Of a stretch of 64,000 nt of DNA, positions 7,158 through 32,831 are shown in pieces (position 1 is the first letter of the stretch; every line of letters begins with the position of its first letter). Position numbers and translations under genes: made by a program. Under the pieces are notes generated by a model. The model ran no database searches. It was given only the letters and a program-made list of their open reading frames with translations, and had not been told where the DNA came from. The stretch is from the sequence record MK327943.1; one strand, given 5' to 3'. The stretch comes from Escherichia phage vB_EcoM_G53.

Positions 7158-8576
7158 TTATGGATATGTATAGATGATACCAGTTTCCAAAGCAGTTTTA
7201 TGGATGATGTATCCATTACGTGATTCTTGAACATCAACTTCCGGATAGTCTTTCATCATCTTCTGAAGAGTGTAACGATGCAGGTAGTATTTACTATCTG
7301 GATCTTCAGTTTTCCAATCTTTACCTTCTTCAGTCATTTTTTGGATTTCATCCATAACCCACCATCCGCACCAGATGTAAGCTGAAGTACGATGTGGAAG
7401 AGGATGAACATAAGGTAATTCACCTTCTGGTTCCGGAGCAACTTTATCAGTTACCTGAACTTGACCTTCTGCTGTAATAGTTTTGCTATCGTAATCAGTT
7501 GCAGTAATAGTTGCAGTAACTTCAATAGTTTGACTTCCAATAGATGAGGTATCAACGGTATATACATTAGTTGACCCTTCTACAGGAGAAGAATCTTTCT
7601 TCCATGAATACTCGATTTGCGCTTCTTCTGGAGCATCAGTGACATTAGCGGTAAATGTAGCCGAAGCATCTTGCTGAACGTTAATAGAAGGAGGAGTCAA
7701 TGTAACCCGTGGATTCATTGTCTTCTTATTAACCGTTAATGATACTTCATTCGAAGTAACTTCCTTTGCATCATAATCTGTCGCGGTTACTTGGGCTACA
7801 CATTTAATTCTTTTTACTCCACTTGTAGTCGGAGTATAGCTAAATGTAGAGTTAGTTTCTCCACCAACCTGTGAATCATCTACATACCACTGATACGTAG
7901 CAGACGCTCCAACCGGTTGAGAAGCTAAGGCAGCAGTAAATTGAACTGGGGTTCCAATTACTCCGGCTGAAGGACTATTGGGAGTTACTGCCAACGTAGT
8001 TGTCTGTGTCTTTTTATTAACAGTCAGTGACACTTCATTAGAAGTAACGCTTAGTGCGTCATAATCTGTTGCGGTTACTTGAGCCACACACTTAATTCTT
8101 TTTACCCCGCTTTCGGCAGGAGTGTAATTGAACGTAGCGTTAGTTGCTTCGCCAACAGGAGAATCGTCTACATACCATTGATAAGTAGCGTTTGCGCCTG
8201 ATGGCTGCGAAGCTAAAGCGGCGGTAAATTCAATAGCTGTTCCTATTACTCCAGCGTCAGGGCTATTAGGAGTTATAGCCAGAGTAGTTGTCTGAGTTTT
8301 ATTTTTAACTGTGATAGTTGCAGTAGCTTCTGCTGTTTCAGCTTCAGCGTCTGGAACTGTATTTGCTGCAACTACTTTAATAGTCTTTTGACCGGCAGGT
8401 CCTTTTAGTACATAACTAAAAGTTGCTTCAGCTCCATCTTGTGGAACATCATCCACAGTCCAAGCATATGTAATAGTTCCACCTTCAGCCTGACCACTAG
8501 GTGTGGCAGTAAACTGCTGGGTCTGTCCTATAACTCCAGTAGGTGTTTTAGGAGTTATATTAACTGTAAAAGCCAT
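7158..8576 (-). CDS. hoc: Hoc, highly immunogenic outer capsid protein with four Ig-like domains
   Basis: 472 aa, Ig-like repeats with YQWYVDD motifs, position hoc-inh; T4 Hoc is 376 aa; contains 96-aa internal tandem repeat. Confidence 0.85.
   Translation of the reverse strand: MAFTVNITPKTPTGVIGQTQQFTATPSGQAEGGTITYAWTVDDVPQDGAEATFSYVLKGPAGQKTIKVVAANTVPDAEAETAEATATITVKNKTQTTTLAITPNSPDAGVIGTAIEFTAALASQPSGANATYQWYVDDSPVGEATNATFNYTPAESGVKRIKCVAQVTATDYDALSVTSNEVSLTVNKKTQTTTLAVTPNSPSAGVIGTPVQFTAALASQPVGASATYQWYVDDSQVGGETNSTFSYTPTTSGVKRIKCVAQVTATDYDAKEVTSNEVSLTVNKKTMNPRVTLTPPSINVQQDASATFTANVTDAPEEAQIEYSWKKDSSPVEGSTNVYTVDTSSIGSQTIEVTATITATDYDSKTITAEGQVQVTDKVAPEPEGELPYVHPLPHRTSAYIWCGWWVMDEIQKMTEEGKDWKTEDPDSKYYLHRYTLQKMMKDYPEVDVQESRNGYIIHKTALETGIIYTYP
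7725..8300. repeat. Tandem ~288-bp repeat (2 copies) encoding duplicated Ig-like domain within hoc
   Basis: Protein residues 93-188 and 189-284 are ~85-90% identical (KTQTTTLA.TPNSP...SLTVNKKT). Confidence 0.85.
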
Positions 8577-27123: not shown

Positions 27124-27159
27124 ATCTTTTTAAACTTTTTCTGCCCTAAACGCACAAAA

Positions 27160-27906: not shown

Positions 27907-28022
27907 TTTAAATTCTCAATTCGAGATAATATTTAGTAGCCACGTTCGTCTGAATTTCACCTTCTTTCGACAAGTCTCTCAGTTGTAGGCTACCGCTTAG
28001 AAGAGTGTTCTCTTCATATAGT

Positions 28023-28030
28023 TATTTATA
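28023..28030 (-). promoter_or_regulatory. Late promoter TATAAATA (minus strand) upstream of rIII
   Basis: Exact motif on minus strand. Confidence 0.4.
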
Positions 28031-28363
28031 TCACTTATAAAGACACGGAATAGCTTTATAGTGGCATGTTACGAATTTCTGTTTAATTTCTTTAGGTTGT
28101 TTAAGTCCCAAAGCCACAAATGGATGTGGAACATTTCGAATTTGTCCAACTGGTAGTGGAGTCAAATCACCGACTTCAACAAAACCTTCAGGAACATCAG
28201 GACCTACAGAATGAACTACACATAGTTCAGGAACTTCACCTTGAACACGTTTACCAATCACAAGTCCTGATTCGGTAACTTCTTCATCACCTGCTTGAGC
28301 GGGTTCAGAAACCAGAATGACATATTCACCAACAGCACGAATTGGGAGTTGTACTTCAGACAT
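28031..28363 (-). CDS. 31: Co-chaperonin gp31 (GroES analogue)
   Basis: 110 aa; near-identical to recalled T4 gp31. Confidence 0.95.
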
Positions 28364-28393
28364 CTTATTTCCTTGTTGTTTGACGATAGATTA

Positions 28394-28419
28394 ATAATAC
28401 CATACTATTCGTAAAGCAT
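28394..28419 (-). promoter_or_regulatory. Middle (MotA-dependent) promoter for gene 31
   Basis: ATGCTTTA MotA box with TATTAT 12 nt downstream. Confidence 0.45.
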
Positions 28420-28420
28420 A

Positions 28421-28729
28421 TTACATAAGAAGCAAACGTTCTACCGGAGTACCATCAACCGAAATTACTTTATCAAGGCGGAAAGAACGCCACTGACCTA
28501 ACTTGGTATCGAATGCTCGAACTGATTCACGAGGTTCAGAACGAACTTCTGATGCCGGATTGTTATTTTCATATTTGACTTCAAGTTCATCGCGAGAAGC
28601 AAACATAGCGCGTACCTCACCGTTAGCCTTTTCAAATACAACACAATGAACGCCTACAGACAGAATAGTTTTAATACGTTCACGAAGAACCATAGTTTCT
28701 TGTTCAGTTAAAATCATATTATTCACCAC
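28421..28729 (-). CDS. Hypothetical protein (31.1 position)
   Basis: 102-aa ORF between cd and 31. Confidence 0.6.
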   Translation of the reverse strand: MVNNMILTEQETMVLRERIKTILSVGVHCVVFEKANGEVRAMFASRDELEVKYENNNPASEVRSEPRESVRAFDTKLGQWRSFRLDKVISVDGTPVERLLLM

Positions 28730-29300
28730 AAAAGTTTCGGATTTGTTCCCAATTCAGAGAACGAAGATTATTACGAGAGTACTGAATTACTTCAATACCG
28801 GCTTGTTTTAGAATGTCTGCCCAATTTTCAGGAGATCGGTCGTATAATTCTGCATATACAACCTTTTTAATACCTGACTGTGTAATAGCTTTAGTGCAAT
28901 CAGGACACGGAGAAAGCGTCGTATATAACGTAGCACCTTCAATAGAATTACCTTTACGAGCTGCAAATAAAATTGCATTCAGTTCAGCATGGATTTCATT
29001 ATTAGCAGACCATGCACTATGAGCGGCCCGATGTTCTTTAGCCAAAACAAAATTATCCACCCGTCCAAATGCTGTAGTGCCTTCTTTATGCCCAGCAACG
29101 ATGACCGGGCTTGGTTTATTCTTCAACCAACCGTTTTCGGATGCATGTTCGCAACAGTTTGTACCACCTGAAGGAGAGCCATTATAACCTGTAGAAATAA
29201 TGCGTCCATCTTTTTCAATGACGGCACCAACTTTCCATGAACAACATTTTGATTCTTGAGAAATCAAATAAGCAATTTGAAGATATGTGCTAGCTTTCAT
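28719..29300 (-). CDS. cd: dCMP deaminase
   Basis: 193 aa; matches recalled T4 Cd; HAELNAI and SPCPDC zinc-binding motifs. Confidence 0.95.
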   Translation of the reverse strand: MKASTYLQIAYLISQESKCCSWKVGAVIEKDGRIISTGYNGSPSGGTNCCEHASENGWLKNKPSPVIVAGHKEGTTAFGRVDNFVLAKEHRAAHSAWSANNEIHAELNAILFAARKGNSIEGATLYTTLSPCPDCTKAITQSGIKKVVYAELYDRSPENWADILKQAGIEVIQYSRNNLRSLNWEQIRNFCGE

Positions 29301-30347
29301 TATTGAACCTTATTAATATAAGTTAACAGCTCTTTAGTTTGTTCCCAACTGATGCACGCATCGGTAACGGAAACGCCATAGGACATATTATCAGAAATTT
29401 TTTGATTTCCTTCATGTAGGAATGATTCTATCATAATTCCTTTGACCAAATCATTAGCTGCTAAATTTTTACCAATACCAATTTGATTGCTATAATGCCC
29501 ATCAGCGTTTGCATGGCTACAGTCAACCATTACATAATGATTCAGACCTACTGCACTTGCTTTGTTAGAAGCTTCTTGAATATCAGAAGAATGATAGTTG
29601 ACCTACTGCACTTGCTTTGTTAGAAGCTTCTTGAATATCAGAAGAATGATAGTTCGGGCCGTTGGTCCCGCCACGCAATACGATATGCGTATTCTGATTA
29701 CCTTCAGCTTCAACAATGCCTACAGTACCATCGACGTCCATACCCATATACCGATGAGGCCAGGCGGCACTATACATCGCGTCTGTAGCTACTTTAATAG
29801 AACCATTGGTTGCGTTCTTGAAGCCTACGCACATCGGTAGACCTGAAGCAATTTCACGATGTGTCTGACTTTCAGTCGTACGGGCGCCAATAGCAACCCA
29901 TGAGAAAATACCAGAAAGATACTTAATCGTGAATGGGTCTAATACTTCAGTTGCTAATGGAAGTCCCATACGTAGAAGTTTACGACACAATGTTCGTGCA
30001 ACTATAAGACCGTGGTTCATATCAAAACTTCCGTCAAGATATGGATCATTTACAAGACCTTTCCAACCTACGGTAGTTCGAGGCTTTTCAAAATAAACGC
30101 GCATCACTAACAGAACATTAGGAAGACGAGTTTGAAGTTCAGCCAGACGTTTGCCGTATTCAACAGCAGCAATAGGGTCATGAATTGAACAAGGACCTAC
30201 AACAATAAGTTTGCGTGGGTCTTCACCGTTCATAATCGAATTAACTTGTTCGCGATGAGAAGCCACTTGTGATGCGTAAGCTTCCGACAAAGGAATAATC
30301 TCAGCCAGTTCTTTTGGAGAAATAAGTTTTCTGACGACAGGTAACAT
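29300..30347 (-). pseudogene. AroG-type 3-deoxy-7-phosphoheptulonate (DAHP) synthase, interrupted by a 55-bp tandem duplication
   Basis: N-terminal ORF 29583-30347 carries GPCSIHD, MRVYFEKPRTTVGWKGL, GARTTESQ motifs; C-terminal ORF 29300-29530 carries SHANADG...ESFLHEGNQ...SVTDACI; removing one repeat copy joins them in frame. Confidence 0.8.
29545..29654. repeat. Exact 55-bp tandem duplication (2 copies: 29545-29599 and 29600-29654)
   Basis: Direct reading of sequence; unit gacctactgcacttgctttgttagaagcttcttgaatatcagaagaatgatagtt. Confidence 0.95.
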
Positions 30348-30467
30348 AACAATCCTTAGGAGATATAAACAGATTCTGATTCAACAATACCTTTAACCGG
30401 ATTAGACAGGCTAAGTTGGTAGTGCTCAGATTTATGACCATTCTCGATAGTAATGAGATAGCTCTCA

Positions 30468-30704
30468 TTATAGTGTTCCATATACTCGAGTTGCTTCAAC
30501 AAGACCATCACTGCCTAATTTAAGATTAGTAATTTGGTCACCATCTTTAGGATTAACGATTATGAGAAAAGAACGTGGAGATTCTTGAATAACTCGTAAT
30601 GTTGCATCTTGGAAACGTTCAGACACTTTATTGATGAGTGCTTGAGCAAATTCTTTTACTTTAATCTGAAATTCGTGTACTGTAATTGGGTTTTCACTTA
30701 ACAT
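30468..30704 (-). CDS. Hypothetical protein
   Basis: 78-aa ORF with upstream early promoter. Confidence 0.55.
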   Translation of the reverse strand: MLSENPITVHEFQIKVKEFAQALINKVSERFQDATLRVIQESPRSFLIIVNPKDGDQITNLKLGSDGLVEATRVYGTL

Positions 30705-30731
30705 TTCTATTTCCTCATTTGTTGGTAGAGT

Positions 30732-30762
30732 TATAGTATCACAACTCCACCATGTTGTAAAC
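30732..30762 (-). promoter_or_regulatory. Early promoter (minus)
   Basis: GTTTAC...TACTAT. Confidence 0.45.
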
Positions 30763-30764
30763 CA

Positions 30765-31040
30765 TTAAATTGCTTTGCATTCAATTTTTTGTGTACCGAA
30801 ATTGATATCACATTGGATAACTAAATCGCCGTCAAGATCAAATACCACTATGACGTGTGCAGACCCAGGGAGAAGAGTAATAGCAATAGAATCTACTTGG
30901 TCTGGGAGCAAAGCGTTAAGTACATGAGTTACTTGAGCATGAACTCTGAGTTCGGCCGCATTATCAAGCACTTCAAACATATTATTAGCAATAATCTGGC
31001 TGAAGACTACCTTTACAATTTCAGAATAAGTTGGGAACAT
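30765..31040 (-). CDS. Hypothetical protein
   Basis: 91-aa ORF. Confidence 0.55.
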   Translation of the reverse strand: MFPTYSEIVKVVFSQIIANNMFEVLDNAAELRVHAQVTHVLNALLPDQVDSIAITLLPGSAHVIVVFDLDGDLVIQCDINFGTQKIECKAI

Positions 31041-31047
31041 AATTACC

Positions 31048-31272
31048 TCAGTGCACAGTATTTACTTTAACTCGAACAACAAATCGCTCGGTTGGTTCAC
31101 CTACAGGAACAAACTCTACATGATATTCACCTTTGTAACGAGTATTCAGATCATTACGAATTCCTGCGAGTTTGTTGATTAATGTAGGACTCATATTAAG
31201 TCCCACTAGTTTACGAAGCATTTTGTATGCTTCATCTTCGATTTCATGATGTTTATCGTACATAGTTTTCAT
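31048..31272 (-). CDS. Hypothetical protein
   Basis: 74-aa ORF. Confidence 0.55.
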   Translation of the reverse strand: MKTMYDKHHEIEDEAYKMLRKLVGLNMSPTLINKLAGIRNDLNTRYKGEYHVEFVPVGEPTERFVVRVKVNTVH

Positions 31273-31444
31273 TTAACCATTCAATTGCCTGGTCGACGTT
31301 ATCAAATATACCGCCGTCCAAACGTTCTTCATGCTCATAGTCCAGCACATCAATACCGAACTGTCCATTTACTAAAGGCCAGGCTACAAACAAATATTCT
31401 TTATGATGTTCGATGGCCTCAATCACTTCATATAATCGTTTCAT
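31253..31444 (-). CDS. Hypothetical protein
   Basis: 63-aa ORF, stop overlaps pseT start. Confidence 0.5.
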   Translation of the reverse strand: MKRLYEVIEAIEHHKEYLFVAWPLVNGQFGIDVLDYEHEERLDGGIFDNVDQAIEWLNENYVR

Positions 31445-32531
<1,087 letters not shown>

Positions 32532-32532
<1 letters not shown>

Positions 32533-32831
32533 TATTTGATTCCTAAGAAAGCTTCAAGAATACGAATGTTGAGTTCGCGCCGGTCTTTATTAATTTCAGC
32601 AACGTTTTTATTAATTGACGTACTTCTAACGTTTGAAGAAATAAATTTAATCATATGACTTTTGAGTTGTTGCAAATCCAACCCTTTTTCTTTAGCAGCT
32701 TTACGAAGAGCTTTACCTGCTTCATCTAGTGCCTTTGCTGCATCTTTGTCATAATCTACAAGTGTCATTCCACGGCAGATATCAATATACTCATCAGACC
32801 GTTTGATGTAATTCTCTAGTAATGTTTTCAT
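32532..32831 (-). CDS. Hypothetical protein (pseT.1 region)
   Basis: 99-aa ORF with early promoter/terminator cassette upstream. Confidence 0.55.

Follow-up and report, generated by a model that had tools for sequence, protein, structure and literature searches.

Two adjacent minus-strand open reading frames (ORFs) lie between pseT and cd in the window analysed here, a 64-kb stretch of T4-like phage DNA, and raise three questions: what they encode, why the coding sequence is split, and how an intact product would be controlled. We consider it likely that the locus, with the explanation developed below, is the gene for DAHP synthase (DAHPS), which carries out the first step in making aromatic amino acids, as it sits between pseT and cd in the RB69-like phages (Mosigvirus) and in several others of the T4 type. 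The features discussed are collected in Table 1.

Table 1. Features of the DAHP synthase locus, with positions in the 64-kb window
Feature	Position	Strand	Remarks
Disrupted DAHP synthase gene	29300..30347	-	1048 nt as given; 993 nt (330 codons plus stop) without one repeat copy
ORF A	29583..30347	-	254 aa; native residues 1-249, then five out-of-frame residues (QLSFF) and TGA
ORF B	29300..29530	-	76 aa; native residues 255-330, including His260, Glu289 and Asp311
Copy 1 of the 55-bp unit	29600..29654	-	gene nt 694-748, codons 232-250; encodes NYHSSDIQEASNKASAVG
Copy 2 of the 55-bp unit	29545..29599	-	identical to copy 1; the extra copy, found in no relative
Copy 1-copy 2 junction			would appear on reads as ...GAATGATAGTT followed directly by GACCTACTGC...
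AAGGA Shine-Dalgarno-like sequence	30353..30357	-	5 nt upstream of the ATG at 30347
cd (dCMP deaminase)	28719..29300	-	downstream neighbour of the DAHPS gene
pseT (polynucleotide kinase)	31445..32344	-	upstream limit of the conserved slot

Identity of the gene product

The two ORFs jointly encode a DAHP synthase, as the original prediction from the DNA letters had it. The sequence blocks that it quoted (GPCSIHD, MRVYFEKPRTTVGWKGL, AIGARTTESQ, IVLRGG, SHAN, ESFLHEGNQ and SVTDACI) are all in the ORF translations, and its estimate of about 330 aa for the mended product agrees with the 330 aa obtained when one copy of a 55-bp repeat is removed. The family check that it proposed, a profile and protein search with the repaired translation, gave matches far above chance to Pfam PF00793 (DAHP_synth_1; 251.9 bits, E=6.8e-75, cut-off 25.5) and NCBIfam TIGR00034 aroFGH (427.6 bits, cut-off 173.2), with the E. 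coli AroF structure 6AGM as the best-scoring solved relative (E=4e-105).

At the metal-ligand positions, tested as Cys61/His268/Glu302/Asp326 in AroG numbering, the repaired product has Cys53, His260, Glu289 and Asp311, which are invariant across the phage-type clade described below; the KPRT motif (K88-P-R90-T91) and the PEP-binding Arg/Lys residues R83, R156, K177 and R225 are likewise present and clade-invariant. An AlphaFold model (pLDDT 93.7) has a (beta/alpha)8 barrel with the beta6a/beta6b insertion, a hairpin of strands 198-203 and 209-214, and an N-terminal extension that is 8-9 residues shorter. The predicted fold superimposes on AroG and the Neisseria DAH7PS (1GG1, 1KFL and 4HSO) with a TM of 0.96 and an rmsd of 1.3-1.4 A. 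Judged by sequence and model, repair of the frame yields a 330-aa type I-alpha DAHP synthase in which the catalytic, metal-binding and substrate-binding residues are all intact, and the intact enzyme would convert PEP and erythrose-4-phosphate to DAHP.

A known gene in a conserved slot

That T4-like phages carry a DAHP synthase is already known, the cargo having been annotated, catalogued and published. More than 100 Mosigvirus genomes have it annotated, and a 2020 publication reported it as a Mosigvirus AMG whose function was unknown; a literature search for functional studies of any phage DAHP synthase gave genome-description mentions only. PHROG 5045 (phospho-2-dehydro-3-deoxyheptonate aldolase, AMG category) matches with 602.8 bits, residues 1-330 falling on profile positions 8-337 of 341, the query being the intact phage protein P0001, which is 99% identical to the repaired product. 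The gene is carried at 80% coverage or more by 212 phage records, 139 of them at 95% identity or more, and among the matches listed each phage gene is one uninterrupted piece. Some GenBank records name it aroF or AroG. After removal of one repeat copy the 330-aa ORF differs by three substitutions from the annotated protein of Shigella phage JK45, YP_010076299.1, and it is 99% identical to the DAHP synthases of Mosigvirus and other T4-like phages (JK45; NicPhage CAJ1523412.1), with which it also shares its place between pseT and cd as well as its stop/start overlap with cd; the frame-breaking duplication is found only in this window. As a discovery of cargo, the locus adds little.

The slot from pseT to cd is conserved in five T4-like genera (Mosigvirus, Kanagawavirus, Marfavirus, Winklervirus and Bragavirus), and the window is colinear with NicPhage on both flanks of the DAHPS gene. 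Between pseT and the gene come five small PHROG families of unknown function. T4 itself has just cd.1-cd.5 between cd and pseT, in keeping with the earlier statement that only small ORFs occupy this interval, which makes the gene an accessory one by comparison with T4. The DAHPS stop codon overlaps the cd ATG (TAATG, base 29300 being common to both), a geometry which, going by position only, is possibly that of translational coupling between the two genes. A promoter and terminator scan of 28000-32600 was uninterpretable (10 sigma-70-like sites versus 14.7 in shuffled sequence), and expression timing is therefore read from gene position alone, which would place it early or middle in infection, within the leftward nucleotide-metabolism transcription unit.

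Relationship to AroF, AroG and AroH

The label AroG-type, under which the gene was first described, does not hold at the level of paralogues. The repaired protein scores 354.8 bits against AroF (51% identity) and 310.7 bits against AroG (47-48%), with 43% identity to AroH; it fails the AroG equivalog NF006723 (364 bits, cut-off 568; 739.5 for the AroG of E. coli), and its best NCBIfam model, NF009395, is likewise the best model of AroF. Although fold and chemistry are like those of the Phe-sensitive E. coli AroG (1KFL/1QR7), the AroG Phe-site residues Pro150, Gln151, Ser180 and Ser211 are replaced by Ile141, Lys142, Pro171 and Gly202, the last being the Tyr-type Gly (AroF 212) and not the Phe-type Ser (AroG 211). 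AroG residues 1-8 are also absent, among them Asp6 and Asp7, which we take to be part of the Phe site in 1KFL.

AroF is thus the closest E. coli paralogue and has the same Tyr-type Gly, and with this Tyr-sensitive isozyme (6AGM) the phage protein has in common the type I-alpha barrel, the beta6a/beta6b hairpin, identical catalytic and substrate residues and the equivalent of Pro148. It nevertheless differs in lacking AroF residues 1-9, in both inhibitor contacts (Gln152 to Lys142, Ser181 to Pro171), in Pro151 to Ile and Phe210 to Tyr, in having eight fewer internal residues and a shorter C-terminus, and in falling outside the enterobacterial AroF group in a neighbour-joining (NJ) tree. In that tree the phage-type DAHP synthases, which come from phages wherever the source is named, are monophyletic in 100 of 100 bootstraps, and what their clade joins is not AroF by itself but a group in which all three of AroF, AroG and AroH occur. 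Because the sampling leans toward the query and includes AroG and AroH only once each, the monophyly of the clade is supported but its root among the three paralogues is not placed with confidence. The phylogeny had been suggested as a way to find an enterobacterial donor; what it returns is no recent donor, but a monophyletic clade about 50-55% identical to cellular enzymes. On this comparison of sequences the gene is a member of an old, monophyletic phage-type clade that is closest to AroF-like enzymes and is not an orthologue of AroF, AroG or AroH.

The N-terminal arm and the inhibitor pocket

The start of the phage enzyme had been put some 18 residues later than that of AroG; the actual gap is 8 residues. 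Met1 aligns with AroG Arg9 and AroF His10, which makes the N-terminus 8-9 residues short. It cannot be extended: going upstream from the ATG at 30347, the reading frame reaches a stop 12 codons away, with no ATG, GTG or TTG in between. The start lies at AroF position 10-12 in 24 of 25 phage-type sequences and at position 4 or earlier in all 99 cellular ones. The arm is shortened, not deleted, with helices alpha00 and alpha0 kept and the equivalent of AroF Ile11 present as Leu2.

Changes in the pocket accompany the shorter arm. In 1KFL and 6AGM the main chain of the inhibitor is held by the side chains of Q151/Q152 and S180/S181. The AroG Q151 column is K or R in every phage-type sequence (25/25) and Q in 98/99 cellular ones, the S180 column is P in 25/25 and S in 97/99, and the P150 column is I in 24/25 and P in 91/99, respectively. 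These are the columns altered in engineered resistant enzymes (phage Ile141, Lys142 and Pro171): AroG P150L and S180F are feedback-resistant, AroF with Gln152 substitutions or with Ile11 deleted is Tyr-insensitive, and yeast ARO4 Q166K is feedback-resistant. As the Q166 column of Aro4 is that of phage Lys142, the Gln-to-Lys change is identical in the two. The engineered enzymes are, however, single laboratory mutations with measured phenotypes, whereas the phage combination is natural, fixed in the clade and read from sequence. An arm without its first 8-9 residues, together with Lys and Pro in place of Gln151/152 and Ser180/181, suggests that the phage enzyme is probably not inhibited by Tyr or Phe, a conclusion toward which we lean without pressing it, and a feedback-insensitive phage enzyme is plausible.

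The alternative that we take most seriously, while leaning away from it, is that the enzyme is still allosterically regulated, by tyrosine or by some other metabolite to which the remodelled pocket is suited, and only adds regulated capacity. Such regulation would suit an AroF-like protein that has the Tyr-type glycine, has lost only 8-9 residues with alpha00 and alpha0 in place, and retains, well conserved, the beta6a/beta6b hairpin that makes up half of the allosteric site, together with Asp137, Pro138, Leu170 and Gly202 (Asp146, the AroF Pro148 equivalent, Leu179 and the Tyr-type Gly). With the hairpin and these residues conserved the site could still be in use, perhaps for another ligand. 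Tyrosine or phenylalanine would nevertheless meet a pocket in which both side chains that hold the inhibitor main chain, and Pro150 beside them, have been exchanged, and in AroG, AroF and Aro4 single changes at those positions abolish inhibition.

The 55-bp tandem duplication

The cause of the ORF split, which the original prediction missed, is a tandem duplication, perfect over its 55 bp, at 29545..29654 (TRF: period 55, 2.0 copies, 100% match). Because 55 is not divisible by 3, duplication of the unit that begins at codon 232 shifts the frame. ORF A retains Cys53, Lys88, Arg90, Arg156, Lys177 and Arg225 but is without the metal ligands His260, Glu289 and Asp311, and the 30 nt that precede the ATG of ORF B contain nothing like a Shine-Dalgarno sequence. 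The duplication is the sole perfect repeat in the 64-kb window and the only structural break relative to NicPhage across 24 kb, no further perfect long repeats or frame-breaking indels having been found within the window. Microhomology, which would have spoken for an origin by recombination, does not extend beyond either repeat boundary at the junction. An AATGAT hexamer occurs near the junction, out of register.

The gene had been presented as one in need of repair, but this state is private to the sequence given here and is no trait of the family. A 60-nt query across the copy-copy junction had no contiguous match in 50,697 phage records, the exact 32-mer at the junction had 0 matches in IMG/VR and 0 in JGI metagenome contigs, and the broken 254-aa ORF is absent from the protein and contig collection searched. 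The length of the duplication equals that of the SPAdes end overlap on circular phage contigs, and the break is therefore probably an assembly artefact, an explanation in which we place fairly firm trust. A 55-bp end overlap on a circularly permuted contig would have been kept when the contig was closed, and the contig re-opened elsewhere. For a T4-like phage, trimming of a 55-bp overlap before the contig was 'reopened' has been described (PMC8483715); 55-bp SPAdes end overlaps are also documented for E. coli phages of about 170 kb, and analogous artefacts are known with lengths of 127 bp and about 79 bp. The duplication resembles such a k-mer overlap in being a perfect repeat of a standard assembler k (55 for SPAdes), in its two copies and in a position that is arbitrary as regards genes, and it is missing from independent sequences of the same gene. 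It differs in that the copies, instead of standing at contig ends, lie side by side within the window, which would require closing and re-opening without trimming. A tandem repeat of exactly 55 bp in a phage genome that has been re-opened is the mark that an untrimmed assembler overlap leaves, and the broken frame is best treated as a data-quality flag, with correction due before any pseudogene label is applied.

A true 55-bp duplication, by which the isolate would carry a DAHP synthase pseudogene through replication slippage or illegitimate recombination, seems to us unlikely, though not negligibly so. The duplication stands in the sequence as given, and since the remaining indels relative to the closest relative over 50 kb are of 1-3 bases each, the sequence is not error-ridden in general. 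Tandem duplications occur in T4-type phages, AMGs are frequently dispensable under laboratory conditions, and in culture the loss of accessory metabolic genes is common. The duplication nevertheless has the length, exactly 55, of the SPAdes terminal overlap documented for just such phages, its copies number exactly two, are 100% identical and are flanked by no microhomology, and neither the phage records nor the two metagenome collections contain the junction, while the gene is uninterrupted among the matches listed for the 212 other phage records. Should the duplication be real, the DAHP synthase gene would be dispensable under the conditions in which this phage was propagated, and the isolate would be a ready natural knock-out for probing what the gene contributes.

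It is very improbable that the two ORFs are a deliberately split or recoded gene, working by two-fragment complementation or a programmed frameshift: ORF B does begin with ATG, and the ORFs jointly cover residues 1-249 and 255-330, but no relative is split, ORF B is without a ribosome-binding site, a frameshift product would contain an 18-residue internal repeat, and the cut leaves three of the four metal-binding residues on a different fragment from the rest of the barrel. Least credible of all is a recent capture of host aroG or aroF, or a misassembly that joined host DNA to the phage contig, which might be read into the aroF and AroG labels in GenBank and into one cluster representative whose name assigns it to E. 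coli (phage DNA within a bacterial assembly being the probable reason), but is contradicted by the low protein identity to the AroF, AroG and AroH of E. coli, by a monophyletic clade that is syntenic in five genera, by a GC of 41% for the gene versus 38% for the window, and by colinearity with NicPhage through both flanks. The host chimera that the original prediction named as its own refutation is ruled out by blastn against 5,426 E. coli genomes, in which the best DNA match extends over 11% of the gene, with 74% identity.

Proposed role in infection

Beyond the broken frame, the locus offers a phage clade naturally altered at the positions that engineers mutate for feedback-resistant DAHP synthases. 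We propose, as a reading that we hold to be evenly balanced and that is drawn from alignment columns, that the DAHP synthase clade of T4-like phages, in at least five genera, has shed aromatic feedback control through a trimmed arm and the Gln-to-Lys and Ser-to-Pro replacements. A deregulated enzyme would sustain carbon flow into the shikimate/chorismate pathway regardless of the aromatic amino-acid pools of the host, and the candidate beneficiaries are the aromatic amino acids themselves, or folate derived from chorismate, for the dCMP/dTMP enzymes encoded next to it. If the proposal is true, it would provide a defined mechanism for an AMG hitherto listed as 'function unknown', a source of naturally deregulated enzyme and a natural counterpart of the feedback-resistant alleles of metabolic engineering, and infection by these phages would force the shikimate pathway open at its point of entry.

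Disruption of the DAHP synthase gene

As originally predicted, two minus-strand ORFs, ORF A and ORF B, carry between them all of the quoted 3-deoxy-7-phosphoheptulonate synthase (DAHPS) blocks in translation. The gene reads as two ORFs because a 55-nt string, AACTATCATTCTTCTGATATTCAAGAAGCTTCTAACAAAGCAAGTGCAGTAGGTC, is present twice back to back on its coding strand, the sole perfect tandem repeat within the 64-kb window. The unit begins at codon 232 in phase 0; its length of 55 nt is not divisible by 3, so the reading frame is displaced by the second copy, and ORF A ends with 249 native residues followed by out-of-frame QLSFF. Deletion of one copy yields a 993-nt ORF of 330 codons, referred to here as the repaired protein. 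As ORF A has only one of the four metal ligands and no ribosome-binding site was found for ORF B, the gene in the window's present form would be non-functional.

Features of the DAHPS region and of the capsid-region repeat
Feature	Coordinates	Strand	Description
ORF A	29583..30347	-	254 aa, head to tail with ORF B
ORF B	29300..29530	-	76 aa, head to tail with ORF A
55-bp tandem repeat	29545..29654	- (coding strand of DAHPS gene)	Tandem Repeats Finder: period 55, 2.0 copies, 100% match
TAATG, DAHPS stop overlapping cd start	29298..29302
Five small ORFs between DAHPS gene and pseT	30356..31444	-	PHROG 15876, 1504, 1695, 3609, 2360, all unknown function
Imperfect 288-bp (96-codon) tandem repeat	7719..8309		76% match, 2.1 copies

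The duplication is one clean lesion in otherwise good sequence. The window is that of a Mosigvirus-type T4-like phage with 99.1% identity to vB_Eco_NicPhage over 24 kb, an alignment whose sole break is the duplication site, and over 50 kb the window otherwise departs from NicPhage only through indels of 1-3 bases, most of them in clusters that compensate one another within divergent patches. Two isolated indels relative to NicPhage, one base deleted and one T inserted, lie at 27126 and 39954, near small ORFs or gene boundaries. Separately, the imperfect 288-bp repeat lies inside a gene annotated 'capsid and scaffold protein' in NicPhage (NICP_218), where the window is ~289 bp longer (blastn offsets 432 then 721), equivalent to one extra in-frame unit and possibly to an additional Ig-like domain of a Hoc-type head decoration protein.

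We consider an assembly artefact the likely source of the 55-bp duplication, with its length the telling point. In the announcement of T4-like phage 132 a 55-bp overlap was trimmed and the contig then re-opened to match T4 (PMC8483715); were the trim skipped before re-opening, a perfect two-copy 55-bp tandem repeat would result at an arbitrary internal position, as seen here. Phages LF82-4 and LF82-16, from the same host as the phages of another 55-bp-overlap case, also carry the DAHPS gene. In related cases, a 127-bp overlap had the length of the SPAdes k-mer, and Sanger sequencing disproved internal repeats of ~79 bp. The duplication may instead be real and private to this isolate, making its DAHPS a pseudogene. 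Of 50,697 phage records, none gave a contiguous match to a 60-nt probe with the copy-copy junction at its middle, the 32-mer junction was not found in IMG/VR or in JGI metagenome contigs, and the broken ORF was not found in the protein collection searched.

Identity and origin of the enzyme

The assignment of the repaired protein as a DAHP synthase is secure. Profile searches bear out the predicted family (Pfam DAHP_synth_1, 251.9 bits; NCBIfam aroFGH equivalog TIGR00034, 427.6 bits against a cut-off of 173), the closest solved structures are, in order, E. coli AroF (6AGM, E=4e-105), Neisseria DAH7PS and E. coli AroG, and none of the four metal ligands or of the residues that bind PEP and E4P is missing or varies. 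Furthermore, the confident AlphaFold model (pLDDT 93.7) of P0001, an intact relative 99% identical to the repaired protein, superposes with AroG and Neisseria DAH7PS (TM 0.96, 1.3-1.4 A). The AroG-type label first given to the enzyme does not hold at the paralogue level, as the protein falls below the NCBIfam cut-offs for AroG and AroH, shares its top-scoring model (NF009395) with AroF, and carries a Tyr-type Gly at the site of a Ser in AroG and AroH.

The gene is accessory relative to T4, as had been supposed, because T4 carries only cd.1-cd.5 between cd and pseT, a position taken here by the five small ORFs. Such cargo is already known in phages and is not new: by tblastn, 212 phage records contain the gene with coverage of >=80%, and in 139 of these the identity is >=95%; in all matches listed it is one uninterrupted piece, usually labelled phospho-2-dehydro-3-deoxyheptonate aldolase, DAHP synthase, AroG or aroF. 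It has a dedicated PHROGs family in the AMG category (phrog_5045, 603 bits) and was noted in Kanagawavirus KLB31 by a 2025 paper.

A search for an enterobacterial donor had been proposed; a recent donor is made unlikely by the findings below, and we regard the gene as a long-standing resident of a T4-like phage sub-lineage. This view rests on the best E. coli DNA match covering <=11% of the gene at 74% identity; on the nearest named relatives (55-77% identity) all being T4-like phages (Edwardsiella PEi20, Erwinia Virsaitis27, Klebsiella pzk-kv8, EcS1, SdyM_006 and Providencia PSTCR6), the remaining near relatives coming from metagenome contigs and cellular enzymes reaching only ~50-55% identity; on the monophyly of the 25 phage-type sequences in 100/100 bootstraps (NJ tree, 124 sequences); on a conserved slot (pseT, small ORFs, DAHPS, 0-2 small ORFs, cd, 31.1, 31, rIII) common to Mosigvirus, Kanagawavirus, Marfavirus, Winklervirus and Bragavirus; and on a GC content of 41% near the phage 38%. 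Beyond the T4-like clade, more remote DAHPS homologues (35-47% identity) turn up in other records labelled as phage, namely Acinetobacter phage MD-2021a (H119/H120) and human faecal 'Bacteriophage sp.' (H121/H122); these may have been acquired independently or may be bacterial sequence contaminating the records. RefSeq taxonomy puts Shigella phage JK45 (NC_054940.1) in Tequatrovirus despite 98% identity to the Mosigvirus-type window over 24 kb, probably a misclassification.

N-terminus and feedback control

Feedback insensitivity had been suggested from a start ~18 residues later than that of AroG. This basis is wrong, as Met1 aligns with AroG Arg9 and AroF His10, an actual deficit of 8-9 residues, with internal gaps and the C-terminus making up the remainder of the 20-residue length difference; the idea itself survives on changes at the inhibitor site and on a short N-terminus in nearly all of the clade. 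The start is not movable upstream because an in-frame TGA lies 12 codons away with no start codon between, and AAGGA precedes the ATG by 5 nt. The first residue falls at AroF position 10-12 in 24 of the 25 phage-type sequences and at position 4 or earlier in all 99 cellular ones, which marks the short N-terminus as a clade trait. The sole phage-type member starting before the usual position, P0022 (an ENA metagenome protein of 332 aa, MHRVAKERKIKTPK...), could reflect a start called differently or a genuine variant.

Gln151/152 and Ser180/181 hold the main chain of the inhibitor through their side chains in the co-crystals of AroG with Phe and of AroF with Tyr (PMC9529685). At AroG position Q151 the phage-type sequences have Lys (24) or Arg (1) and the cellular ones Gln (98 of 99); at S180, Pro (25) and Ser (97); at P150, Ile (24) and Pro (91); and at F209, Tyr (25) and Phe (97), respectively. 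One change at such a site is enough for feedback resistance, as in AroG P150L and S180F, AroF with Gln152 substitutions or Ile11 deleted, and yeast Aro4 Q166K. Aro4 Q166 presumably occupies the column of phage Lys142, the Aro4 sequence used for the alignment fitting the published numbering at three sites. We therefore lean, if only somewhat, towards a phage DAHPS no longer inhibited by Tyr/Phe. The inhibitor site may instead be re-tuned rather than abolished, since the beta6a/beta6b hairpin is kept along with several residues of the pocket. No assay of any phage DAHPS was found in the literature open to search.

Proposed role

The gene encodes a catalytically complete type I-alpha DAHPS, intact in relatives, in a conserved early-region slot. 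The overlap of its stop with the cd start, an abutment also annotated in JK45, NicPhage and Entb_45, suggests that translation of the shikimate-entry enzyme is coupled to that of dCMP deaminase. We propose that DAHPS would be expressed together with the leftward nucleotide-metabolism genes and would make DAHP from PEP and E4P; being probably insensitive to aromatic amino acids, it would thereby increase the flow towards chorismate in infected cells. The useful product might, speculatively, be aromatic amino acids for virion protein or chorismate-derived p-aminobenzoate and folate, the latter in keeping with the adjoining cd and with td and frd, which lie on the same strand ~10 kb upstream. Overall, the original observation holds and its interpretation does so in part: the feature is a known phage gene in a probably mis-assembled state, and its remaining value lies in a flag on the 55-bp repeat and in the testable prediction of a naturally deregulated DAHPS.
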